In this document: positions 1 to 14,237 of the stretch, piece by piece | Layout: every line of letters starts with the position of its first letter | How positions within the stretch are numbered: the stretch's first letter is position 1 | Assembly (NCBI GenBank): GCA_902796545.1 | Contig: CADBPF010000010.1 | Location: 1 to 39,105 of the forward strand | Source: an uncultured Ruminococcus sp. | GTDB lineage: Bacteria; Bacillota; Clostridia; Oscillospirales; SIG627 | Length of the DNA stretch: 39,105 nucleotides | Direction of reading: 5' to 3' | Notes under the pieces: model-generated | Told to the model about the DNA's origin: nothing | The model's database searches: none | The model's input: the letters and a program-made list of their open reading frames with translations, nothing else | Program-made: the position numbers and the translations under genes

Positions 1-1419
1 ATCAACGGCTATCAGTCCTGGACCGAAACGCGCGAATTCTACGCCGACGCCCGCGAGCGCGACGTGACCGCCCTGCCCCGGGCGCTGGTGCGCAGCTTCG
101 CGCTGGACCGGTACGGCGACGCGACCTTTTACGAATACGACAAGCGCGTTCTGCACGGATACGACGTGTTCTACGTGAAAGGCAAGACCGGCGCGTTTAT
201 CTGCAACTTGAACGCGAAAAACGCCTATCTGATCGTGGAGGTCGTGCGGCGCATCGGCGCGGTCACGCTCATTTCCGATATTCGCGGCAAAAAGCTCTGT
301 GCGGGCGAAAGCTTCGTGATCTGCGATTATTTCTATCGCGGCAGCTTTGAGGACGGCATCCGCGCGTTTTCCGAGATCTTCCCGGAAAAGCCCGTTTCCG
401 GAATCTTCGGCTATTCCTCCTGGTACAACTATTATCAGAACATTTCCGAAGAGATCCTCCTGCGCGATCTGGACGCGCTTGACGAGCGCTTCAATCTCTT
501 TCAGATCGACGACGGCTACGAGACCTTCGTCGGCGACTGGCTGGACGTGGATCCGCAGAAGTTCCCGAACGGATTAAAGCCCGTACTCGACAAGATCCTG
601 TCGCGCGGGTATCGGGCGGGCATCTGGCTTGCGCCCTTCGTGGCGGAGGAAAAGAGCAGGCTCTATCACGAGCACCGCGACTGGTTCAAGAAAGGCCCGG
701 ACGGTGAATGTGTGAAGTGCGGCTCGAACTGGAGCGGCTTTTACGCGCTGGATCTGGAAAACAAAGACGCGCTCGACTATATCGCAAAATGCTTGAAGCA
801 CTACGCGGATATGGGATTTACTTTCTTCAAGCTTGATTTTCTCTACGCCGCGAATCTTCCCGATTACGACGGAAAAACGCGCAGCGAGGCGGCGGAGTAT
901 GCCTATCGCTTCCTGCGGGAGACGCTCGGCGAGCATCTGATCCTCGGCTGCGGCGCGACCGTGTTCAACGCGCTCGGTAAATTCGACTATCTGCGCGTCG
1001 GTCCGGACGTGTCCTTGAAATTCGACGACGCCTGGTTCATGCGCTTCATGCACCGCGAACGCATCTCCACCAAGGTGACGCTGCAGAACACGATCTACCG
1101 CTCTTTTTTAGACGCGCGTTTCTTCGGCAACGATCCGGACGTGTTTTTACTGCGCGACGAGAACCTCGCTTTGAGTTTCGAGCAAAGACGCGCGCTTGTC
1201 ACGATCAACGCGCTGTTCGGCAGCGTGATGATGACCTCCGACAACCTGTCCGGTTACGACGCGCCGAAACGCGCCCTGCTCGATCAGGCGCTGGAGCTCT
1301 TTAATTCGGCGCGCGTGACGGACTTTTCCAGACGCGGCGATGAGATCACCGTTCACTACACGCTCTCCGGCGCCGAACACACCTTGATCTACGACACCGA
1401 AAAGGGGGTCTTGAAATGA
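1..1419 (+). CDS. Alpha-galactosidase, GH36-like (5' truncated by window)
   Basis: Frame open from base 1 (INGYQSWTE); motifs SSWYNYY, QIDDGY, FKLDF (nucleophile Asp), RVGPD (acid/base Asp). Confidence 0.85.
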   Translation: MNGYQSWTETREFYADARERDVTALPRALVRSFALDRYGDATFYEYDKRVLHGYDVFYVKGKTGAFICNLNAKNAYLIVEVVRRIGAVTLISDIRGKKLCAGESFVICDYFYRGSFEDGIRAFSEIFPEKPVSGIFGYSSWYNYYQNISEEILLRDLDALDERFNLFQIDDGYETFVGDWLDVDPQKFPNGLKPVLDKILSRGYRAGIWLAPFVAEEKSRLYHEHRDWFKKGPDGECVKCGSNWSGFYALDLENKDALDYIAKCLKHYADMGFTFFKLDFLYAANLPDYDGKTRSEAAEYAYRFLRETLGEHLILGCGATVFNALGKFDYLRVGPDVSLKFDDAWFMRFMHRERISTKVTLQNTIYRSFLDARFFGNDPDVFLLRDENLALSFEQRRALVTINALFGSVMMTSDNLSGYDAPKRALLDQALELFNSARVTDFSRRGDEITVHYTLSGAEHTLIYDTEKGVLK

Positions 1420-2858
1420 CCGATAAAACCCGCGTGATCTTCCAAAACCCGATCGACCCGAAAACGATCGCCGCCGCGGAAAGATCCCGCGCGAAATACT
1501 TGAAAAAATACGGCGACGACACGAACGCCGACTACAAAATCAGTTTTATGCCGATCGAAACGCTGTCCCACATCGGCGCGCAGAATATCGTGTTCGGCGA
1601 AACCAACGCCGCTTTCGGCGAAAAGCCGCTGATCGTCGGCAATATCCGCATGGGCTTCGGGCATTACCGCATTTCGATCGCGATGGCGAGCGCGGCGCGG
1701 GCTTTGGGCTTTACGCCCTATTGGCTCGACCTTGCCTCGTTTGACGCGACCGGCAGTAAAATGATCCGCGAGCAAAACGACCTGTATTCCCTCGCCTCGC
1801 GCATTTCGCAGAAATCGCGGCTCTTCAACAAGCTTTTCTGGGAGCCCTTGAACAGCGAGGGCTTCAAAAAGCTCACCTACAACGCAAAGGATCAGAAAAA
1901 CAGCGAGCTGCTCGTGCCGATCTTTCGCAATATCGACCGTTCGATCCCCTATATCGCGACGCACGTCTGGCCGAGTCAGGCGGCGATCCACGCGGGCATG
2001 ACCCGCGTGGTCAACGCGATCCCCGACAACTGGCCGATGGGTCTGCACCTTTCCGAGGGCGCGATCCACACCGTGCAGACGCCGTTTGCGTATCTCGGCT
2101 ACAAGACCTTGAACGGCTTTGCGAAAACGCCCCTGCGCGGCATTCCGGAATCAGACCTCAAAATGGTCGGCTGTTACGTGGATCACGAGCTGCTCGCAAA
2201 CCTTGCCGAGGACAACCGTCTGCGCAAAGAGCGCGCCGCAAACGGCGAGCCTGTGCGGATCATGATGAACGTGGGCGGCGCGGGCGCCGGCGGCGATCTG
2301 TTCACCGCGATGATCGACCACCTGCTCCCCTACGTGGACCGGCACAAGGCCGCGCTCTTTGTAAACGTCGGCGATCACAAGGGCGTGCTCGACAAGATCC
2401 GCGCGCATTTGGGAGATCGCGCGGATCTGAAGGTTTTTTCCGACGACTACGACGCGTTCTGCAAGCACGTTGCAGAAATCCGCGGCGCGGCGGCAAGCGG
2501 TATTACGCTCGTGCATCACGAGTCGATCTTCCCCGCCGTGTATTCCACCAACCTGTTGATGCCGGTCTGCGATCTTCTCGTGACCAAGCCGAGCGAGCTT
2601 GCCTACTATCCGATCCCGAAGCTCTTTATGAAGCACATCGGCGGCCACGAGGTTTACGGCGCGATCTACGGCAGAGAGATCGGCGACGCGACCGACGAAT
2701 ACCCCGGAAAAGACGGGATCTGCGCGGCGCTGGATCGCCTGATCGGCGATCCGGAGATCCTTTGCCACCTCTGCGACCGGATCGACGTTTTGCACGCAAA
2801 CGGCACCTACGACGGCGCGTATCGCTGCGTGAAGCTCGCTTCCGGCATGGAAAGATAA
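1416..2858 (+). CDS. Uncharacterised GT-B-like protein resembling UgtP/MGDG synthase (GT28-like)
   Basis: ATGA overlap with upstream gene; ordered motifs MGFGH, ATH, GGAG, CDLLVTKP, GGHE resemble GT28 glycolipid synthases. Confidence 0.55.
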   Translation: MTDKTRVIFQNPIDPKTIAAAERSRAKYLKKYGDDTNADYKISFMPIETLSHIGAQNIVFGETNAAFGEKPLIVGNIRMGFGHYRISIAMASAARALGFTPYWLDLASFDATGSKMIREQNDLYSLASRISQKSRLFNKLFWEPLNSEGFKKLTYNAKDQKNSELLVPIFRNIDRSIPYIATHVWPSQAAIHAGMTRVVNAIPDNWPMGLHLSEGAIHTVQTPFAYLGYKTLNGFAKTPLRGIPESDLKMVGCYVDHELLANLAEDNRLRKERAANGEPVRIMMNVGGAGAGGDLFTAMIDHLLPYVDRHKAALFVNVGDHKGVLDKIRAHLGDRADLKVFSDDYDAFCKHVAEIRGAAASGITLVHHESIFPAVYSTNLLMPVCDLLVTKPSELAYYPIPKLFMKHIGGHEVYGAIYGREIGDATDEYPGKDGICAALDRLIGDPEILCHLCDRIDVLHANGTYDGAYRCVKLASGMER

Positions 2859-5936: not shown

Positions 5937-7292
5937 ATGAAAGAACGGACTGCGGCGGAAAAACGGGGCGTGCGTTTGCGCACGACCAATTTCGTTATGG
6001 TCGCGATCGCCCTGATCCTCAGCGTGGCGCTCTTTCTTTCGGTCTATCAGACCAACGACAGTTACGAAAAGACCAGAGAAGCCGCGGAGAACTATATCAC
6101 GCTGCAAAAGTGCGCGCAAAGCATGCAGGATTCTTCGGATTATCTGACCGAACAGGTGCGCGGCTTTATCATGACCGGCGCCTCCGAATATCTCGACAAT
6201 TACTTTCACGAAGCAAACGTTTCCAGACGCCGCGACCAGGCTTTGGCGACCTTAAAAGAACACCTCGGCGAAACCGAAACCTATTTTGCCCTGGAAGCCG
6301 CGATGAACGGTTCCGTGGATCTGATGCAGGTCGAATGCTACGCCATGCGGCTCGCAGTCGACGCCTACGGATATCGCCTCGCCGACGCCCCGGTCGAGAT
6401 CCAAAGCGTCGTTCTGAGCGAGAACGATCTGACGCTGGATTCGCAGGAGCTGCAAACCCTTGCCCGCGAGCTTGTGTTCAACGACGCGTACCGCGAACAA
6501 AAAGAGAAGATCAGTTCCAACACCCGCCGGTGTCTTGTGGGACTGGAAGAAGAGGCGGAAACCAATCAGACCACCGAGGCGGATCACCTGCGCGATCTTC
6601 TGCTCCAACAGCAGGTGCTGATCGCCGCGCTGATCGCAACGATCTTGGGCTATGCGCTGATCGTCTCCGTCCAGGTCGTTGCTCCCCTGTTGCGCGCGAT
6701 CCCGCGCATCCGCGAGGGCAAGTCCATCCCCGTGCGCGGCGCAAAGGAATTCCGCTTTCTTGCCCGCACCTATAACCGGATGTCGGAAGCCAACCGCAAG
6801 AGCAAAAAGCGCCTGATCTACGAGGCGCGCCACGACCAGCTCACCGACTTGCTCAACCGCAACGGCTACGAGTCCCTCACCCAGTCGATCGATCCCTCCA
6901 ACTCCGTGCTGCTGCTCATCGATATCGACCACTTCAAGAGCATCAACGACACCTACGGACACGACGTGGGCGATAAGGTGCTGGAACTGGTCGCGGACAC
7001 GCTGAAAGCAAACTTCCGCGAAAACGATTATATCTTCCGTTTCGGCGGCGACGAATTTGCCGTCATTATGCAGGACGCGGACAAAAACTGCCGCGAACTG
7101 ATCGTAAACAAGGCGGCACGGATCAACGAGTCGCTGTCCGAAAAGCGCGAGGGCGTTCCCGTGGTGAGCGTTTCCGTGGGCGTTGCCTTCGGCAAGGAAG
7201 AAAGCGAGTCGCAAAACCTGTTCAAGGAAGCGGATATCGCACTCTACCGCGTGAAGGAAAATAAGCGCGGCGGCGTGGAATTTTTCGCGTAA
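5937..7292 (+). CDS. Membrane-anchored diguanylate cyclase
   Basis: Two hydrophobic segments flanking a sensor region; DQLTDLLNR, DIDHFKSINDTYGH, RxxD I-site (REND), intact GGDEF. Confidence 0.92.
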   Translation: MKERTAAEKRGVRLRTTNFVMVAIALILSVALFLSVYQTNDSYEKTREAAENYITLQKCAQSMQDSSDYLTEQVRGFIMTGASEYLDNYFHEANVSRRRDQALATLKEHLGETETYFALEAAMNGSVDLMQVECYAMRLAVDAYGYRLADAPVEIQSVVLSENDLTLDSQELQTLARELVFNDAYREQKEKISSNTRRCLVGLEEEAETNQTTEADHLRDLLLQQQVLIAALIATILGYALIVSVQVVAPLLRAIPRIREGKSIPVRGAKEFRFLARTYNRMSEANRKSKKRLIYEARHDQLTDLLNRNGYESLTQSIDPSNSVLLLIDIDHFKSINDTYGHDVGDKVLELVADTLKANFRENDYIFRFGGDEFAVIMQDADKNCRELIVNKAARINESLSEKREGVPVVSVSVGVAFGKEESESQNLFKEADIALYRVKENKRGGVEFFA

Positions 7293-7307
7293 AGATCCCG
7301 TGTTTTG

Positions 7308-7338
7308 GCGCCGGAAGGATCCCTTTCGGCGCTTTTTT
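7308..7338 (+). terminator. Intrinsic terminator
   Basis: GCGCCGGAAGG-ATC-CCTTTCGGCGC followed by T6. Confidence 0.75.
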
Positions 7339-7339
7339 C

Positions 7340-7368
7340 TTGAAAAACGGCGGAAAAAATGCTATACT
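7340..7368 (+). promoter_or_regulatory. Sigma-A promoter for fprA
   Basis: TTGAAA-17-TATACT with extended TG. Confidence 0.75.
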
Positions 7369-7400
7369 TTTTCCAACATACGAAGGAGGGTTTTCCGTTT

Positions 7401-8591
7401 ATGAAACGACCGATCAAAGCAAACGTGAGCTGGGTGGGCTATCTCGACTGGGAGCTTGAGAGCTTTCACGGCGACGATTATTCCATTTTCAACGGCTCCA
7501 GCCAGAACGCCTATCTGATCGAAGAGGAAAAGACCGTTCTGATCGATACCGTCTGGATCCCCCACCGTTTTGATTTCGTGGAAAATTTAGAAAAAGAGAT
7601 CGATCTTGACAAGATCGACTTTATCGTTGCAAACCACGGCGAATGCGACCATTCCGGCGCTTTGACCGCGCTGATGGAGAAGATCCCGAACACGCCGATC
7701 TACTGCACGCAGAGCGCCGTGCAGAGCCTGAAAGGTCAATACGGCGACCGCGGCTGGGATCTGCGCGTGGTCAAGACCGGGGACACCCTCGATATCGGGC
7801 ACGGCAAACAACTCGTGTTTCTCGAGATGAAGATGCTCCATTGGCCGGATTCGATGGCGACCTATCTGACCGGCGACAATATCCTTTTCTCCAACGACGC
7901 CTTCGGTCAGCATTTCGCGGTGGAAGAGCTCTTCAACGACAAAGCCGATCAGTGCCTCTTATACAAAGAAGCGATCAAGTATTACGTGAATATCTTGAAC
8001 CCCTTCTCCCCGCTCGTGAAACGCAAGATCGAGGAGATCAAGGGGCTCGATCTGCCGATCGACGTGATCGCGCCCTCCCACGGGGCGATCTGGAGAGAAA
8101 ACCCGATGCAGATCGTGGAGCAGTACGCGATCTGGGCAGACGCCTATCAGGAAAATCAGATCACCGTTTGCTACGACACCATGTGGGAAGGCACCTCGAA
8201 ACTCGCGCACGCGATCGCAAACGAGATCCACAACCAAAGCCCGGAGACCGTGGTCAAGGTCTTCAACGTGGCGAAATCGGACAAAAACGAAGTGATGACG
8301 GAGATCTTCAAATCCCGCGCGATCGCGCTCGGCAGTCCGACGGTATCCAACAGCATCCTTTCGAGCGTGGCGGGCTTTTTGGAATTTGCCAAGCAGTTGA
8401 AATTCAAAAACAAGCGCGCCGCGGCGTTCGGCTGTTACGGCTGGAGCGGTGAGAGCGTGAAGATCCTAAAAGAAAAACTGGCGGAAGCGGGCTTTACGGT
8501 CACAGAAGAGGAGATCCGCTCTCAATGGAACCCGGGGAAAGCCGATTTTGCGCAGGTCCCCGCGCTGGTAAAAGAACTGATCGCAAAATGA
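7401..8591 (+). CDS. fprA: Flavodiiron protein (O2/NO reductase; MBL + flavodoxin, no rubredoxin domain)
   Basis: NHGECDH, HWPD, SNDAFGQH, PSHG, flavodoxin FGCYGWSGE; AAGGAGG upstream of ATG 7401. Confidence 0.9.
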   Translation: MKRPIKANVSWVGYLDWELESFHGDDYSIFNGSSQNAYLIEEEKTVLIDTVWIPHRFDFVENLEKEIDLDKIDFIVANHGECDHSGALTALMEKIPNTPIYCTQSAVQSLKGQYGDRGWDLRVVKTGDTLDIGHGKQLVFLEMKMLHWPDSMATYLTGDNILFSNDAFGQHFAVEELFNDKADQCLLYKEAIKYYVNILNPFSPLVKRKIEEIKGLDLPIDVIAPSHGAIWRENPMQIVEQYAIWADAYQENQITVCYDTMWEGTSKLAHAIANEIHNQSPETVVKVFNVAKSDKNEVMTEIFKSRAIALGSPTVSNSILSSVAGFLEFAKQLKFKNKRAAAFGCYGWSGESVKILKEKLAEAGFTVTEEEIRSQWNPGKADFAQVPALVKELIAK

Positions 8592-8606
8592 TCCCGCAAA
8601 ACTACA

Positions 8607-8634
8607 AAAGGCGACGGCAAATGCCGTCGCCTTT
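8607..8634. terminator. Bidirectional intrinsic terminator
   Basis: AAAGGCGACGGCA-AA-TGCCGTCGCCTTT between convergent genes. Confidence 0.85.
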
Positions 8635-8645
8635 CGTTTTACTTT

Positions 8646-10379
8646 TTACGCGCTTGGTTCGTTTCTGCCGCCGGGAGGATCGCCGCCCATTCCGCTCTGC
8701 TCGCCCATATCGCCGGGGCTTGCGCCCATGCCTTGATCGCCCATACCGCCGAAAGCGGAGCCGCTTGCGGCGCTTCCGACAGTATTGAGCGTATCGGAAA
8801 GCGTGATCTCGTATTCGGTCTGACCGATCGTGACGGTATAGCTTTCGCCGAGCGTAAACTCCGGGATACTGACGATCGCCGAAGAAAAGCCGTAGGGGAT
8901 CGTTTCTTCCAAAAGCGTGTTGCCTTGCGCGTCGGCGATGCGTAAGGTACTCTGATCGCCCGTTGCCTCAACCCCGAGTAAGACCGAGGCTTGCGCGGAG
9001 CCGGAGGTGAAGTTTTCCGCCATGGAGCCGTTGCAGCAGCCGACGACCGTGCCGCCCGAGATCTCGCAGACCCCGCCGGACTCGCTTGCGTAATCGAAGG
9101 CGTTGTTGCCGGCATTGTTTGCCGCGCTCACGAGCACCTTGCCGCCGGTGATGAAAATATCGCCGTTGGAGTCGATGCAGTCCGCGTCCTGCCCCGTGGG
9201 GTTATAGATGCGCGTGGTGCCGCCGGAGATCAGAACGTAGATCCCGTTTGCGGAGGTTTCGGCAGTGCTCGTTTCAAAATCCCCCGTGCTCCCGGCGCTT
9301 GCCGGCGCATTGCCGGGCGCGCCTCCGTTCCCGACTCCGCCCGTCCCGCCGGGCGCAGAGCTGCCGGACCCGTCGGACGCGTTGATCCCGTCGTCGCTGC
9401 AATAGATCGTAAGGTCGCCGCCTGAAATCGTGACGGTCACGCCCTCCAGACCCTCGTAGCAGTTTTCGATCAACAGCGTGCCGTTTTCCCAAAGAAGGTC
9501 GGTGTCCGAATGGATCCCGTCGTCGCCGGCGGTGATCGTGAAGGTCCCGCCCGAGACCGTGATCGCGCCCACGGCGTTCACGCCGTCGTCGCCGGCGGTG
9601 ATCGCAAAGGTGCCGGACTCGATATAGAGATAGCCGTTCTCCCCCGCGACGCTGATCCCCTCGTCTGAAGCGTTCACGGTGAGATTCGCGCTTGTAACGC
9701 GGATACTGTCGTTTGCGCGGATCCCGTCGCCCGCGGACGCGTTTACCGTGATCGTACCGCCCGTGATGACCAGATCGTCGTTTGCGGAGATTCCGTGCTT
9801 GTAAGACGCGCTGACGGATAAGGCGCCCGAGCCGTTGATCGTGAGATCGTCGTGGGAAAAGATCGCGCCGTCCGCGCCGTCTGAAATCGCCGCGCTGGAA
9901 TACGTATCGCCGGAAACGAAGGTGTTTTCGGTGTTTTCCGCCAAGGTCAGGAACACTTTGTCCGCGTTTGCGACCCGAAACGCCGCGTTGTCCGAGCAGG
10001 TGATCGAGACGCCGTTTAAGAGGATATGCACCTTTGCGGTGTTCTCGGCGTCCACCACGAGCGCGCCGTCGGAAAGCGTTCCCGTGACCTCGTAATAGCC
10101 GTCGGAGGCGATGACCACGGTGTTTTGATACTGATACGTCCCCTTGCCCGTGAATGTGGAGCCAGAATCGGACAGGACGATCGTGTTTGCGTTTTCCCTG
10201 TCCCAGGTGCCGTTCAGATCCGCGTTGGTGAAATATTTCGCGTCGGAACCAGCTTCCGAATCCTCGTCCACGACAAGCGTGATCCCGAGCGCCTCGCCGT
10301 TCATGAACAAAACGGTGAGGATCAGCGCAAAGATCATCACGATCACGCAGATAAGATCGATCCGTTTGTGGGATGACAT
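8646..10379 (-). CDS. Membrane-anchored carbohydrate-binding-domain protein (Cthe_2159-like beta-helix)
   Basis: N-terminal TM; repeated 'ISGGTxxIxAxDDGI' coils; YEGLEG; DCIDSNG; G/M/P-rich low-complexity tail. Confidence 0.8.
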   Translation of the reverse strand: MSSHKRIDLICVIVMIFALILTVLFMNGEALGITLVVDEDSEAGSDAKYFTNADLNGTWDRENANTIVLSDSGSTFTGKGTYQYQNTVVIASDGYYEVTGTLSDGALVVDAENTAKVHILLNGVSITCSDNAAFRVANADKVFLTLAENTENTFVSGDTYSSAAISDGADGAIFSHDDLTINGSGALSVSASYKHGISANDDLVITGGTITVNASAGDGIRANDSIRVTSANLTVNASDEGISVAGENGYLYIESGTFAITAGDDGVNAVGAITVSGGTFTITAGDDGIHSDTDLLWENGTLLIENCYEGLEGVTVTISGGDLTIYCSDDGINASDGSGSSAPGGTGGVGNGGAPGNAPASAGSTGDFETSTAETSANGIYVLISGGTTRIYNPTGQDADCIDSNGDIFITGGKVLVSAANNAGNNAFDYASESGGVCEISGGTVVGCCNGSMAENFTSGSAQASVLLGVEATGDQSTLRIADAQGNTLLEETIPYGFSSAIVSIPEFTLGESYTVTIGQTEYEITLSDTLNTVGSAASGSAFGGMGDQGMGASPGDMGEQSGMGGDPPGGRNEPSA

Positions 10380-10419
10380 CGGGTTTACTCCTTATCGAAC
10401 ATCGGTTTTTTTGCGTGCG

Positions 10420-11091
10420 TCAGCCCATATAATCGCCGTTGTAGCTGACGAGCACCGCGCTTTTCACGCCGGGCAGCTCGGAGAGCCGGTTGATAAAGCC
10501 GGTATCGGAATCCTTCATGCGCACCTCGGCGTTGACCTCCACCATACCCTTCTGCACGGTCTTGGATTTGACGGAGAATTTCGTGACCTGCTTCTGCAAA
10601 AAGTCCAAAGCCGCCTGCTCGCTTGCCTGATCCTCCGTGCGCAAAACCACGATATAGGGGTTGATATGGCTTTTGCGGTTGGCAAAGATCAGAAGCACGA
10701 CGCCGATGATCACGCTGCCGAAGACCGCCAGGGGGATCATCCCCGCCGCAAGCACGATGCCCGCCGCGATCGCCCAGAACAAAAACGCGATGTCGATCGG
10801 TTCTTTGATCGCGCTTCTGAAACGGACGATGGACAGGGCGCCGACCATACCGAGGGACAGCACCACGTTGGAGGTGACTGCCAAGATCACGAAGGTGGAG
10901 ACCATGGTGAGCGCGACCAGCGTGACGCCGAAGCTTGCCGAATACATAACGCCGGCGAAGGTCTTTTTATAGATGAAGAAGATAAACAGTCCGATCGCAA
11001 AGGACAATACCAGGGCGATCACCATATCCAGAATGGAGACCGCGGTCACGTTTTCTAAAAAACTGGATTTGAAAATGTCGGAAAAACTCAT
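10420..11091 (-). CDS. DUF4956 family membrane protein
   Basis: SLGMVGALSIVRFRSAIKEP signature; several TM helices; adjacent to VTC gene. Confidence 0.88.
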   Translation of the reverse strand: MSFSDIFKSSFLENVTAVSILDMVIALVLSFAIGLFIFFIYKKTFAGVMYSASFGVTLVALTMVSTFVILAVTSNVVLSLGMVGALSIVRFRSAIKEPIDIAFLFWAIAAGIVLAAGMIPLAVFGSVIIGVVLLIFANRKSHINPYIVVLRTEDQASEQAALDFLQKQVTKFSVKSKTVQKGMVEVNAEVRMKDSDTGFINRLSELPGVKSAVLVSYNGDYMG

Positions 11092-11140
11092 AATCTGACT
11101 CCTTTTTTACAAATGGTTTTGTGGATAAGCGTTTCTGCGT

Positions 11141-11812
11141 TCAGTCGTAAAGCCGACAGGATGCGTATTTGGAAAAGGCGCTCGTTTGGGTCGTGGGGGT
11201 CTGGACCAGATCGTGCACGAGCGAGGGCAAAAACCCGTCCCATTTGACTTCCAAAATATTCGGGTCGCCCGGGATCGGGATCGTGACGCAGTCCCAGACC
11301 AGCAGATCCGTGCAGGAAAGCCCGGTGCGGATGTGGTAATCGAGCGTGACGCGCACGTTGCCCGGCGCGTATAAAAAGGCTTCACGCGTGTAGTCCACTA
11401 TCGTGCGCGGGCGCAACAGATTCCCTTGCAGCTTGCGGTAAAACTCCCGCATGATCGGCTCGTCCCGCATCCGGATCGCCTCAAACTCGCCGTGTGCGAG
11501 CGCGTCCGCTTCCTCATACGAGAGCTTTGCCGACTCTTTTTTTCCGAGTCCCGCAAGTTTACTCTTCTTTTCCAGGCGGATAAACGAGGTGTCGCCGTTA
11601 TAATACCGGATACGGAACTTTTCCCTGCGGCTGATCCCGCTTAAACTCTCTTTGAGCGCCGTGTCGTAGAGATCGTCGAAATATAAGCTCCGGATCTCGT
11701 ACTTGCCGTCGATCGCGTGGGGATCTTTTTGAAGCACGGCGCAGAATTTCGCGCGAAGAGCGAGCAGATCGGCAAAACTGATCTCATGCTTTTTCTCATG
11801 GCGATAATCCAT
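11141..11812 (-). CDS. VTC-domain (polyphosphate polymerase-like, CYTH fold) protein
   Basis: RHEKKH, IRSLYFD, REKFRIRYY, LEKK, YTREAF, RVTLD, ILEVK, FSKY; AAGGAG 8 nt upstream of ATG 11812. Confidence 0.88.
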   Translation of the reverse strand: MDYRHEKKHEISFADLLALRAKFCAVLQKDPHAIDGKYEIRSLYFDDLYDTALKESLSGISRREKFRIRYYNGDTSFIRLEKKSKLAGLGKKESAKLSYEEADALAHGEFEAIRMRDEPIMREFYRKLQGNLLRPRTIVDYTREAFLYAPGNVRVTLDYHIRTGLSCTDLLVWDCVTIPIPGDPNILEVKWDGFLPSLVHDLVQTPTTQTSAFSKYASCRLYD

Positions 11813-11845
11813 CTTGCACACTCCTTTCTCAACGTTTCCGCGTAC

Positions 11846-11878
11846 AGGATAGCAGGCAAACCTTAAAGCAATCTTAAA
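11846..11878 (-). promoter_or_regulatory. OmpR/CiaR-type direct-repeat box plus -10 for the VTC operon
   Basis: Minus strand: TTTAAG-attgc-TTTAAG-N10-TATCCT. Confidence 0.75.
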
Positions 11879-11920
11879 AAAAGAAACCGTTTCGAAAAAA
11901 TTTCGAAACGGTTTCTTTTT
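11878..11920 (-). terminator. Intrinsic terminator after the histidine kinase
   Basis: Perfect inverted repeat AAAAAGAAACCGTTTCGAAA / TTTCGAAACGGTTTCTTTTT. Confidence 0.85.
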
Positions 11921-11933
11921 CCTCGGTCTTGTT

Positions 11934-13214
11934 TCAGAAGATCACGGTAAACCGGATGCGATCCGGCGCAAGATAGTCGGCATAGATCCCCTTGCCCGCC
12001 TTTTCGGCGATCGTTTTTGCCACGGAAAGCCCGACCCCGAAGCCGCCGGAAGAGCCCTGCGTGCGGGCGCCGTCCGCGCGATAAAAGCGATCGAACAGGC
12101 GCTCCGGCGCGCAGTCCGGCAGATCACGACAGGTGTTTTCGATATCAAAGCGGATATGCTTGCCCTCCCGCGCAAGAGATACCCGGATCTCGCCGTCCTC
12201 GTCGGAGTACTTGACGGCGTTTTCAAAGAGGATGGAAAACAGCTCCTCGATGCGCGCCTTGTCCGCGAAAGCGTCGATCCCCGGCGCGATCTCTTTAGAA
12301 AAGGAGATCCGCTTTTGCCCGATCGGCTCCGAAAACGCCTCCGAAAAGCTTTCGCACAGATCGCTCAACGAGAATCTTTCCGGCGTCCAGGTCTGCGCTT
12401 CCTCCATGCGCGACAGCTTCAAAAGCCGATCCGTCAAGCCGGACAGGCGGGTCGTTTGTTCTTTGATATTGCGGCTGTACTTGCTCTCGCCGCTATACAG
12501 CTCCATCGCCTCCGTATTGGACCGGATGATGGCAAGCGGCGTTTTGAGTTCGTGTCCCGCGTTGGTCACGAATTGCTTCTGGCGCTCCATATTCTCCGCG
12601 ATCGGGCGGATCACGCGCCGCGAGAGCGCGATCACGAACACGAGCATCAAAGCCCAGGCGACGATCCCGCCGCCGATCGAGATCAAAAGCACGTTGAAAA
12701 ACGCGCCGTATTCGTCCGTTACGTCCAAAAAGACCACGCACTTGCCGTCTTCTTCCCGCAAGTCCGCCACGCGGTAATGAAATCTGCCGAAGACGCCCGT
12801 TTCCTTTGCGCCCGCAAGCGCGCTTTCGGCAAGCTCGATCGCATCCTCCTCGTCCACGGCGCTCGTGCGCTCGCAATCGACGCGGGTCACTTCCCCGTCC
12901 TCGTCAAAGCAAACGAGAAAGAAGTTCGAGGACATCAAAACGTCGTAATCGTTTTTGCGGCCCTCGGGAAACTCACTGTCGCGCCACGGCGCCCGATGAT
13001 CGTCGTCCCGCTTTGCGTCTTCCCCGGCAAACTCCGGCGGGATGAGCCGCTGCGGCTCGCCGAGCGTTTCGGCGAGCATCGACAAGGTCTCGCCCACGCG
13101 GTTTTCCGTGAATACGAGATCGAAAACGTTGATCGCGGCAAGCAAGACCACAAGCAGCACCGTCACGGCAAGCTGCGCCGTGAGGATGAACTTTTTCTGT
13201 AAGGTACGGATCAC
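11934..13214 (-). CDS. Sensor histidine kinase (HisKA + HATPase)
   Basis: GTG start overlapping the regulator's TGA; two TMs; H-box NAGHELKTPL, N-box ENAVKY, FDRFYR, GFGVGLS. Confidence 0.92.
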   Translation of the reverse strand: MIRTLQKKFILTAQLAVTVLLVVLLAAINVFDLVFTENRVGETLSMLAETLGEPQRLIPPEFAGEDAKRDDDHRAPWRDSEFPEGRKNDYDVLMSSNFFLVCFDEDGEVTRVDCERTSAVDEEDAIELAESALAGAKETGVFGRFHYRVADLREEDGKCVVFLDVTDEYGAFFNVLLISIGGGIVAWALMLVFVIALSRRVIRPIAENMERQKQFVTNAGHELKTPLAIIRSNTEAMELYSGESKYSRNIKEQTTRLSGLTDRLLKLSRMEEAQTWTPERFSLSDLCESFSEAFSEPIGQKRISFSKEIAPGIDAFADKARIEELFSILFENAVKYSDEDGEIRVSLAREGKHIRFDIENTCRDLPDCAPERLFDRFYRADGARTQGSSGGFGVGLSVAKTIAEKAGKGIYADYLAPDRIRFTVIF

Positions 13215-13885
13215 AAGCCTTCCTCCAGAGTATAACCGAGATTGCGCTTCGCGCTGATGACGGCGCGGCTTCCGACCGACCGGATGCGCTTGCGCAGATA
13301 GGACAGATAGACCCAGACCGTGTTCGCCTCGGCTTCGGAATCGTAGCCCCAGGCGCGCTCGATCAGCTGATCGGTGGACAGGCAGGCGCCCTGATTCAAC
13401 ATCAGCACCTCCATCAGGCGGTACTCCGCTTTCGGGAGTGTGACGCGCTTGTCGCCGCAGGACAGCTCGAAGGTCCTCTGATCCAAATTCAAGTCGCCGC
13501 AGCAAAGAACGCTCGGCGTGAAGGTCTCCTTACGGCGCAGCATGGCGCGGATCCGGGCAAGCAAAAGCTCCATGGAAAAGGGTTTGGGCAAATAATCGTC
13601 CGCCCCGAGATCCAACCCCGCGATCTGATCCTCCACCTCGCTTTTGGCGGTGAGCAGCAAGATCGGTGTTTTGACCCCTTGCGCGCGCAGGGTCTTCAAA
13701 ACGGTAAGTCCGTCCATACGCGGCATCATGATATCCAGAATGATCCCGTCGTAGGAATCGGCGCGGGCGTAATCCAGCGCATCGGCGCCGTCATAGACCG
13801 CGTCAACGAGATACTTGTGATAGGTTAAAATATCGACGACCGCGTCGGATAAGGCGCGCTCGTCTTCCGCGTACAAGAGTTTCAT
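13211..13885 (-). CDS. OmpR-family response regulator (CiaR-like)
   Basis: AEDE, LDIMMP, LTAK, GADDYLPKPF, winged-helix C-terminus (VYLSYLRKRI, RNLGY). Confidence 0.95.
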   Translation of the reverse strand: MKLLYAEDERALSDAVVDILTYHKYLVDAVYDGADALDYARADSYDGIILDIMMPRMDGLTVLKTLRAQGVKTPILLLTAKSEVEDQIAGLDLGADDYLPKPFSMELLLARIRAMLRRKETFTPSVLCCGDLNLDQRTFELSCGDKRVTLPKAEYRLMEVLMLNQGACLSTDQLIERAWGYDSEAEANTVWVYLSYLRKRIRSVGSRAVISAKRNLGYTLEEGL

Positions 13886-13905
13886 TTTTCATCCCTCCGG
13901 GATCT

Positions 13906-13938
13906 AATCTACCAAAACGACCTTAAGGATACCTTAAA
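13906..13938 (-). promoter_or_regulatory. Second OmpR/CiaR-type box plus -10 (likely autoregulation)
   Basis: Minus strand: TTTAAG-gtatc-CTTAAG-N10-TAGATT. Confidence 0.75.
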
Positions 13939-13955
13939 AAGAAAAAGCGTCGGAG

Positions 13956-14237
13956 TCAGGACGCTTTTTTGAAATTTTCTTTTCTGCGGTAGTGGAAATA
14001 GAGGACGATATCCGCGGTGACCATACAGAAATTGAGGATATAAAAGAACAGAACGTACCAGGCAAAGGATGCGCTTAAAAGCTTTGCCGCGATCCCGCAG
14101 AGATAGCCGAAATCAATGAGCAGTAAAAAGGCGAGGCTTTTCCCTTTGGTGCTTTTGTTTTTGTAGGTCGTGAGGATATTGTTCGGCCAGGAAAAGCCGA
14201 ACGCGATGAGCATGGCGATCTCGAAAATCTGTGACAT
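13956..14237 (-). CDS. Small 3-TM PQ-loop/SemiSWEET-like protein
   Basis: 93 aa, three hydrophobic helices, FGFSWP..I...KSTKGKS; AAGGA RBS. Confidence 0.65.
   Translation of the reverse strand: MSQIFEIAMLIAFGFSWPNNILTTYKNKSTKGKSLAFLLLIDFGYLCGIAAKLLSASFAWYVLFFYILNFCMVTADIVLYFHYRRKENFKKAS

Follow-up and report, generated by a model that had tools for sequence, protein, structure and literature searches.

A conserved bacterial VTC-DUF4956 gene module with an adjacent sensor pair and a surface-protein slot shared by CotH and Cthe_2159 proteins

In bacteria, polyphosphate synthesis is ascribed to PPK1 and PPK2. The closest described eukaryotic system to the locus considered here is the VTC complex (yeast Vtc4/Vtc3/Vtc1; structures 3g3q, 3g3r, 7ytj and 8i6v), which combines a catalytic domain in the cytoplasm with a membrane component, the channel being a pentamer of three-helix subunits, and which is controlled through inositol pyrophosphates. 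We analysed a 39,105-nucleotide stretch of DNA from an uncultured Ruminococcus sp. (contig CADBPF010000010.1; the whole 39-kb stretch is called the window below), in which five intact genes, all on the minus strand, form two transcription units between 8607 and 13969. Unit 1 encodes an OmpR-type regulator and a histidine kinase, and unit 2 encodes a VTC-family enzyme, a DUF4956 membrane protein and a Cthe_2159 beta-helix protein. The window enzyme shares the Pfam family, the tunnel fold and nine residues with the eukaryotic complex and, as there, a cytoplasmic catalytic domain appears to be paired with a membrane component. Unlike its eukaryotic counterpart, it is a bare 223-aa domain with no room for an SPX domain and no fused membrane helices, its partner is predicted to be an MgtC-like protein with an ACT-like domain, the module stands under a two-component system, and a surface protein is encoded in the operon.

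Among bacteria, the closest arrangement is the accessory set of Gram-positive pel loci (cotH, 'poly-phosphate polymerase' and DUF4956, with DUF4832; SIR_1592-1594 in S. intermedius), whose cotH / 'poly-phosphate polymerase' / DUF4956 linkage next to pel genes is reported in excerpts of Whitfield et al. 2020 (PMC7112168); VTC and CotH genes are also listed in a C. perfringens locus in an excerpt of PMC2879425. The VTC-DUF4956-CotH linkage is already known, being in print for Pel loci. The window holds the same pair together with an exported third protein, but it differs from the pel set in having Cthe_2159 for CotH, no PelG match in its 96.9%-complete genome, and a dedicated sensor pair. According to the excerpted text of a Streptococcus intermedius study, the three-gene synteny was not found outside the Pel locus (PMC12345266); in the loci examined here it occurs many times, and the annotated ones lack adjacent pel genes. 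The main new point is that CotH and Cthe_2159 proteins swap in one slot behind a shared anchor; also new are a Vtc4 residue map, a profile-level link between DUF4956 and MgtC, two regulator boxes and a conserved sensor domain. The module is real, intact and conserved, and sequence comparison and structural models suggest a Vtc4-type system whose membrane partner differs, whose regulation is bacterial and which includes a surface component; its function is a prediction. Our preferred reading, which we hold with a probability of about 0.45, is that of a regulated envelope module in which a Vtc4-like polymerase would work with an MgtC-like partner and an exchangeable surface head. In the order of transcription, its features are:

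13942-13969, minus strand: terminator-like hairpin at the upstream boundary of the module (10-11 pairs followed by a T-run, detected on both strands)
13921-13937, minus strand: regulator box 1, TTAAGG-N5-TTAAGG (35 nt before the regulator ATG; -10-like TAGATT 9 nt further on)
13211-13885, minus strand: OmpR/PhoB-type response regulator, 224 aa (Response_reg E 3.8e-28, Trans_reg_C E 4.2e-19)
11934-13214, minus strand: sensor histidine kinase, 426 aa (HisKA E 5.1e-12, HATPase_c E 6.1e-17)
11878-11920, minus strand: intrinsic terminator closing unit 1 (hairpin of 22 bp with a U-run behind it)
11861-11877, minus strand: regulator box 2, TTAAGA-N5-TTAAGG (48 nt before the VTC ATG; -10-like TATCCT 9 nt further on)
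11141-11812, minus strand: VTC / triphosphate-tunnel enzyme, 223 aa (PF09359 E 5.2e-33)
10420-11091, minus strand: DUF4956 membrane protein, 223 aa (PF16316 E 1.9e-11)
8646-10379, minus strand: Cthe_2159 beta-helix protein, 577 aa (PF14262 E 2.6e-70)
8607-8634: terminator common to the module and a convergent flavodiiron-like gene (-28.8 kcal/mol, z -7.5)

The gene that follows DUF4956 carries the main result. Among 80 orthologous loci it encodes a CotH protein in 43 and a Cthe_2159 protein in 32, the other 5 having something else or being cut off (Cthe_2159 was called with a profile built for this analysis and CotH with Pfam). At the 46 VTC-DUF4956 pairs of related genomes, Cthe_2159 lies within 5 kb in 14 cases and CotH in 15, and both together in none. 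On a tree of concatenated VTC and DUF4956 sequences (78 rows, quick search, SH-aLRT branch support only), the CotH/Cthe_2159 label needs at least eight changes, and well-supported branches leave no way around at least five of these. Frequent transfer is suggested by the disagreement of the tree with taxonomy. The window falls into a 97%-supported group of 12 rows, with 9 CotH, 2 Cthe_2159 and 1 other, and its nearest relatives carry CotH. Cthe_2159 alternates with CotH within one lineage of the pair, and a more distant VTC-DUF4956 lineage of the related genomes has Cthe_2159 lipoproteins in the same position, so that Cthe_2159, in anchored and lipoprotein versions, is tied to VTC-DUF4956 in two diverged lineages. 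In the window genome itself, VTC and DUF4956 are single genes and Cthe_2159 is present twice, the other copy encoding a lipoprotein on a different contig.

Over their first ~32 residues, the CotH and Cthe_2159 versions of the third protein are alike: a basic stub in the cytoplasm, with the motif MS[ST]HK.ID.IC, leads into a membrane helix. Of the 43 CotH proteins 39 carry the motif, as do 30 of the 32 Cthe_2159 proteins, and residues 1-33 of the window protein match CotH N-termini in blastp with E down to 2e-8. Both kinds end in Gly/Pro/Gln/Asp/Met-rich tails, some with a final membrane helix. The window protein (237 bits to PF14262, cut-off 25.8) matches the solved Cthe_2159 of Clostridium thermocellum (4peu/4phb) at E 1.9e-28 and has the same beta-helix repeat; unlike the C. 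thermocellum protein, it carries the N-terminal anchor motif shared with CotH and a low-complexity tail, and it is tied to VTC-DUF4956. Its N-terminal signal anchor is followed by an acidic ectodomain (pI 4.05; 71 D+E versus 13 K+R) and a Gly/Met/Asp/Pro-rich tail; it is thus membrane-anchored and extracytoplasmic, in agreement with the Asp-rich, anchored surface protein that an earlier, sequence-only reading of this DNA had described. That reading also remarked that no CotH-like kinase gene is present, and indeed CotH (PF08757) has no match anywhere in the 1.40-Mb, 96.9%-complete genome (125 contigs). Its suggestion of a minimal version of the neighbourhood does not survive, since the slot swap and the common anchor make Cthe_2159 an alternative head that fills the CotH slot. 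Separately, a weak Beta_helix (PF13229) match comes from the gene that follows CotH in two CotH-type loci (L043:9500-11338 and L050:9372-10994), so a kinase head and a beta-helix protein can co-occur.

The pair upstream of this slot is nearly inseparable. VTC and DUF4956 each occur in the same 30 of 41 genomes of the same order, and 44 of the 46 VTC matches in these genomes have DUF4956 just downstream on the same strand, 42 of them within 400 nt. The two exceptions are a contig-end fragment and genome G038, the latter being the only clear uncoupling of VTC from DUF4956 seen among the loci examined. In 121 genomes sampled evenly across the phylum, both families are found in the same 13 with none discordant, and 13 of 14 pairs lie on one contig. 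VTC is directly upstream of DUF4956 in 78 of the 80 orthologous loci, one of the others having a 1.8-kb insert and one being cut by the contig start. As kin are not independent, these figures are descriptive counts rather than tests. The gene sets of the module recur in dozens of other genomes, and the arrangement is far beyond chance; the neighbourhood statistics thus come out on the side of the proposed VTC-DUF4956 partnership, with co-occurrence almost without exception. The window DUF4956 is 65-79% identical to those of the 80 loci, which come from Lachnospiraceae, Oscillospiraceae, Acutalibacteraceae and others. Two of the CotH-type loci, L102 and L107, belong to strains of the culturable species Ruminococcus flavefaciens. 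Among 40 related genomes, it is 59-69% identical to the pair's DUF4956 in 4, of which 3 have CotH downstream, and 26-41% identical to the remaining ones. At E <= 1e-5, at least 8000 database clusters match each protein, VTC and DUF4956.

The VTC protein of the window scores 115 bits against PF09359 (cut-off 23) and has no signal peptide or membrane segment; SPX (PF03105) has no match in the genome, a family that matched nothing in any control genome either, and at 223 aa the protein can accommodate nothing beyond its VTC domain. A single-sequence search of solved structures gave a chance match only, and a profile was required: built from 26 homologues, it matches yeast Vtc4 (3g3q) at E 3.3e-16. 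The profile alignment pairs K8 with K200 of Vtc4, R67 with R264, R69 with R266, K83 with K281, Y141 with Y359, R143 with R361, E188 with E426, S214 with S457 and K215 with K458, where the last three pairings come from a second, low-scoring part of the HMMER alignment, although its motifs do line up. All nine Vtc4 catalytic positions are invariant or at least 90% conserved, both in the 26 and in the 80 homologues. According to excerpts of a VTC cryo-EM preprint, these Vtc4 residues bind triphosphate and Mn and mutating them lowers polyphosphate, with K458 being the sole such residue that is replaced in the inactive Vtc2 and Vtc3. The predicted model of the window enzyme (pLDDT 93.1) has Vtc4 (3g3r) as its best Foldseek match (E 1.9e-13, TM 0.74), and ranks 1-13 are all VTC subunits, above triphosphatases and cyclases, with ygiF among the later tunnel enzymes. 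The Vtc4 profile alignment, the kept residues and the model fold make the window protein a member of the VTC family with an intact Vtc4-type active site. Its product is most likely polyphosphate formed from nucleoside triphosphate, a polymerase step suggested by the Vtc4-like site.

The DUF4956 protein (44.4 bits to PF16316, cut-off 30.6) is modelled (pLDDT 79.6) with helices at 20-45, 52-71, 75-87, 98-115 and 119-137. These five predicted helices are followed by a C-terminal domain that is modelled as beta-alpha-beta-beta-alpha-beta and appears ACT-like. Basic residues at 42-43, 90-95 and 138-140 would fit a five-helix, N-out, C-in topology, in which case the GAxSxVRFRS stretch, invariant in DUF4956 proteins, and the C-terminal domain would be cytoplasmic. 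Aligned with 14 true MgtC proteins of related genomes, DUF4956 gives an hhalign probability of 96.35% (E 1.5e-9, 198 columns). In fold searches, which took in the C-terminal domain alone, the top Foldseek match is the MgtC C-domain (E 2.4e-3; 2lqj, Z 9.8, rmsd 2.6 over 84 residues), and 7qa5 is also similar. The DUF4956 profile finds no relative by sequence among solved structures. Like DUF4956, the MgtC/SapB/YhiD family (PF02308) has a membrane domain of several helices and, after it, a small alpha/beta domain at the C-terminus, and in excerpts of PMC12345266 the S. intermedius authors call their membrane protein MgtC-like with an ACT domain.

The kinship is remote. The window protein stays far under the MgtC cut-off of NCBIfam NF007431 (35 bits versus 214) and has no Pfam MgtC (PF02308) match, which 4 of 21 relatives do have (best E 4.8e-4). 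The invariant residues of MgtC are not kept in DUF4956, and sub-threshold MgtC matches in the genomes land on DUF4956 genes. DUF4956 adjoins VTC, whereas in the same genomes the true MgtC genes are either on contigs different from those of the VTC-DUF4956 pairs or separated from them by more than 100 kb. The hhalign result, the fold of the C-domain and the sub-threshold matches argue for DUF4956 as a distinct, distant branch of MgtC-like proteins, as judged from profiles and models, and not as kin of Vtc1-type subunits. The membrane partner, as the earlier reading had cast DUF4956, is unrelated to the yeast Vtc1-type subunits; it is a remote MgtC relative, and DUF202 (PF02656, the Vtc1 type) has no match in the genome. 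A prediction of the VTC + DUF4956 complex, run with 80-row alignments, one copy per chain and without controls, scored 0.00 and 0.00, a result that weighs neither for nor against a contact. In a record labelled as a metagenome-assembled genome of Faecalibacterium sp. (L093:6965-8660), a DUF4956 frame of 564 aa gives profile matches over 7007-8651 and could reflect a membrane protein that was tandemly duplicated or fused.

Control of the module by the adjacent sensor, as the sequence-only reading had proposed, gains support from a box in front of both operons and from homologous sensor pairs at many modules, and its regulator-kinase pair and co-oriented three-gene operon between terminators are found as described, with five genes on the minus strand and both terminators real; the VTC, DUF4956 and Cthe_2159 assignments likewise hold, all above the curated cut-offs of their hidden Markov models. 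The direct repeat TTAAGR-N5-TTAAGG has two matches in the 39-kb window, against 0.00 expected in 100 shuffles. In both, the hexamers are 11 bp apart and a -10-like hexamer follows 9 nt further, one box lying before the regulator gene and the other before VTC. Direct-repeat boxes in place of the -35 element are the geometry typical of the PhoB/OmpR class. As in PhoB/OmpR-type regulons, the window regulator is of the winged-helix type with direct-repeat boxes at both promoters; unlike PhoB, it is no equivalog of PhoB or any named regulator, scoring under every NCBIfam equivalog cut-off (TIGR02154 161 bits versus 296; for the PhoR side, TIGR02966 123 bits versus 334). Of 77 orthologous loci, 21 have a relaxed form of the box in the 250 nt upstream of VTC, versus 0.3% of random 250-nt stretches, an enrichment somewhat favoured by construction because the pattern was chosen after inspecting 13 of those loci.

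The sensor pair itself travels with the module. In 24 of the 80 orthologous loci, a regulator 44-66% identical to that of the window lies beside the pair; with 9 further loci from related genomes, the identities span 41-66%. The kinase has hydrophobic stretches at 5-38 and 169-206 enclosing an acidic extracytoplasmic domain (39-168; 34 D+E versus 15 K+R), followed by HisKA and HATPase_c. Its residues 1-190, which span both membrane stretches and the sensor domain they enclose, have blastp matches to kinases next to VTC-DUF4956 at 23 further loci (24 matches in all, one locus being present twice; E 2e-38 to 9e-4), and these loci include both the CotH and the Cthe_2159 type. Sequence matching thus indicates a sensor domain conserved beside such modules. 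In the 15 Cthe_2159-type loci of related genomes, the window included, the sensor pair is adjacent in 10, not adjacent in 3 and cut by contig ends in 2.

Within the module, the GTG start of the kinase overlaps the regulator stop codon by 4 nt (GTGA); the kinase domain scores were taken on the open reading frame 11934-13505, of which the true start is the GTG at 13214. The gap between kinase and VTC is 121 nt, with the terminator and the second box inside it, and the gaps between VTC and DUF4956 and between DUF4956 and Cthe_2159 are 49 and 40 nt. The hairpin at 11878-11920 (-27.5 kcal/mol, z -6.4; as good in 0 of 200 shuffles) was overlooked by a simple terminator scan. The VTC ATG sits 7 nt after AAGGAG, and the listed open reading frame begins 9 nt earlier at a GTG. 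A promoter scan returned a single site, which overlaps the VTC start codon and was discounted.

In the mechanism we favour, the kinase would sense something outside the membrane through its acidic domain, and the phosphorylated regulator would bind the two boxes at the -35 position, switching on the regulator-kinase operon and the three-gene operon. The Vtc4-like enzyme would then polymerise polyphosphate from nucleoside triphosphate in the cytoplasm, held at the membrane by DUF4956, whose Arg-x-Arg stretch and ACT-like domain would face the cytoplasm. From the constant adjacency of the two genes we infer that their products are bound to each other, and from the surface partner that there is export: DUF4956 probably carries the product, or phosphoryl groups from it, through the membrane. 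The third protein, tethered at the surface by its N-terminal anchor, would be a Ca-binding-type beta-helix here and a CotH kinase in sister loci, and the beta-helix head could bind the polyanionic product via divalent cations or share with CotH a surface polymer on which both act. Linkage and slot swap together suggest that the VTC-DUF4956 pair is a conserved 'engine' with interchangeable extracytoplasmic 'heads'.

A bolder version, which we consider doubtful, would make the module a second, yeast-like bacterial polyphosphate route aimed at the cell exterior. Here the pair would push polymer or phosphoryl groups outward to feed the heads, which would dock by the MS[ST]HK.ID.IC anchor. Such export would supply the CotH head, otherwise without a phosphoryl donor outside, while the beta-helix head would hold the polymer. 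The cytoplasmic part of the anchor could be a chain start or hand-over site. The sensor would read the state of the surface, its acidic domain responding to, for example, free divalent cations chelated by the polymer.

Several points weigh against the envelope module we prefer. PPK1 is present in the genome (PPK2 and Ppx-GppA have no match in it), and therefore polyphosphate synthesis as such is not missing. Our literature search, in which subscription journals were not covered, found no biochemical study of a bacterial VTC protein. The tunnel fold is also used by triphosphatases and cyclases, as the fold search shows. Nothing in the analysis indicates that DUF4956 is a pore or an oligomer, roles that are putative, and MgtC is described in excerpts of PMC12345266 as a regulator of ATP synthase and PhoR and not as a channel. 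So acidic a beta-helix ectodomain could presumably hold polyphosphate only via bridging cations. With regard to gene order, 17 of the 46 pairs of related genomes lack both CotH and Cthe_2159 within a distance of 5 kb, only 3 of 77 orthologous loci have the exact box (at most one mismatch) upstream of VTC, and in G038 VTC stands alone beside an alpha-amylase gene (L029, C23) with regulator, kinase, DUF4956 and Cthe_2159 together elsewhere (L030, C16). Furthermore, a VTC domain fused to an RsgI-like transmembrane sensor would also suit a signalling role. In P0244, and in P0245 and P0247 by their precomputed domains, the fusion partners of a complete VTC domain are a membrane helix, a central RsgI-like anti-sigma domain and a tail that is very acidic, and the VTC domain of P0244 stands where the cytoplasmic part of a transmembrane sensor would be.

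In one alternative, the module would be a cytoplasmic device for phosphate or energy homeostasis without export, in which VTC makes or degrades short polyphosphate, a triphosphate or a signal under, or acting upon, an MgtC-like regulator, and the surface protein is merely co-regulated. The MgtC alignment and C-domain similarity given above, the reported action of MgtC on ATP synthase and PhoR, the triphosphatases and cyclases among tunnel enzymes and the complete VTC domain in RsgI-like sensors all suit such a device. We nevertheless regard it as unlikely. The enzyme retains the full set of nine Vtc4 polymerase residues, among them the lysine missing in inactive Vtc2 and Vtc3; the residues invariant in MgtC itself are lost from DUF4956; and the third product is extracytoplasmic wherever present, its repeated swaps behind one anchor being hard to square with co-regulation alone.

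It is quite unlikely, in our estimate, that the module is a surface-glycan accessory system of the kind seen in Gram-positive Pel loci, with the pair supplying phosphoryl groups outside to modify an exopolysaccharide or wall polymer and the beta-helix binding or cleaving the glycan. The genome has no PelG match, as noted above, the 39-kb window holds no glycan-synthesis genes, its other genes being housekeeping ones (FtsH, TilS, DnaB, L9, GdpP, topoisomerase IV, HflX and others), and the module is enclosed by terminators. In favour of this explanation stand the contiguity of cotH, 'poly-phosphate polymerase' and DUF4956 with pel genes in streptococci and clostridia, according to excerpts of PMC7112168; the lowered Pel levels and aggregation of S. 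intermedius after deletion of the DUF4956-like and CotH genes, reported in excerpts of PMC12345266; and the binding of cellulose and polygalacturonic acid by Cthe_2159 proteins, reported in an excerpt of PMC6712302. The acidic ectodomain would also suit a cationic polymer.

That the genes are neighbours without shared function, or that the module is decaying and inactive here, is very improbable: truncated in-frame deletion products of other organisms, with two-thirds or more of VTC, counted from its start, joined directly to Cthe_2159, CotH or kinase and DUF4956 lost, show that the module does decay in some lineages, but in the window the five genes are intact with conserved residues kept, the VTC-DUF4956 linkage is near-universal, and DUF4956 identity holds at the level given above across 80 loci from several families. 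We had looked at longer VTC proteins for VTC-DUF4956 fusions as evidence of contact, and none was found among 23, which is weak evidence of absence. Ten of the 23 were scanned, with six apparent Cthe_2159-VTC, CotH-VTC and kinase-VTC fusions, all with a cut VTC domain (profile positions 1-107 to 1-211 of 235 in five, and 76-230 in P0264, where CotH comes first) and nothing DUF4956-like between the two parts. From their sequences they look like recurrent in-frame deletion remnants of the module and not designed fusions. The cut-VTC proteins are P0250, P0253, P0259 and P0263 (Cthe_2159, mature part), P0258 and P0264 (CotH) and P0251 (kinase); some of them occur on many contigs.

Other observations concern the surroundings of such modules. 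Near-identical or Clostridia-like copies (L056/L066, L051, L083, L110) occur in records labelled Bacillus sp., Clostridium sp., Bacteroides, Fusobacterium and Coriobacteriales, those labelled Bacillus sp. and Clostridium sp. having end branches of 0.016 and 0.028; they reflect either gene transfer or mis-binned contigs. In L031:5800-8880 (G018:C113), ApbE, an FMN_bind/Fer4_5 membrane protein and a second regulator-kinase pair lie directly upstream of a module arranged as Cthe_2159-regulator-kinase-VTC-DUF4956. In L028:8004-9152 (G021:C47), a gene for a Y_phosphatase3 + fn3 protein is convergent to the Cthe_2159 gene of a VTC-DUF4956-Cthe_2159 operon.

In the window, a 93-aa hydrophobic protein is encoded at 13956-14237 (minus strand) between a HAD hydrolase gene and the module; its gene ends in the 13942-13969 hairpin, and the protein has no Pfam match at E <= 1e-5. 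On the other side, a flavodiiron-like protein (metallo-beta-lactamase + flavodoxin; 7359-8591, plus strand) converges on the 8607-8634 terminator, and a GGDEF protein (5937-7292, plus strand) with ~290 N-terminal residues without assignment also points toward it. Further away, a DUF6937 + DUF6938 protein (1416-2858, plus strand; E 5e-106 and 3e-76) adjoins a melibiase-like gene. Nine public sequencing runs contain at least half of the sampled words of 8600-13950, those that are labelled being bovine gut or rumen metagenomes, and no RNA run is listed among the nine.

The window thus offers a compact, intact and separately regulated copy of the module, with predictions that can be placed on nine residues, two DNA boxes and a defined anchor. 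The CotH/Cthe_2159 swap is a natural experiment: the nature of the product should be indicated by what both heads have in common, be it a polyanion, a cation-bridged polymer or a surface target. If the proposed function is true, PPK1 and PPK2 would be joined by a third polyphosphate route, one aimed at the envelope and built on a Vtc4-type enzyme that has its own membrane partner and surface protein. It would also bear on where exported CotH-type kinases find their phosphoryl donor outside the cell, and could explain the part that these genes play in Pel-dependent aggregation in streptococci.

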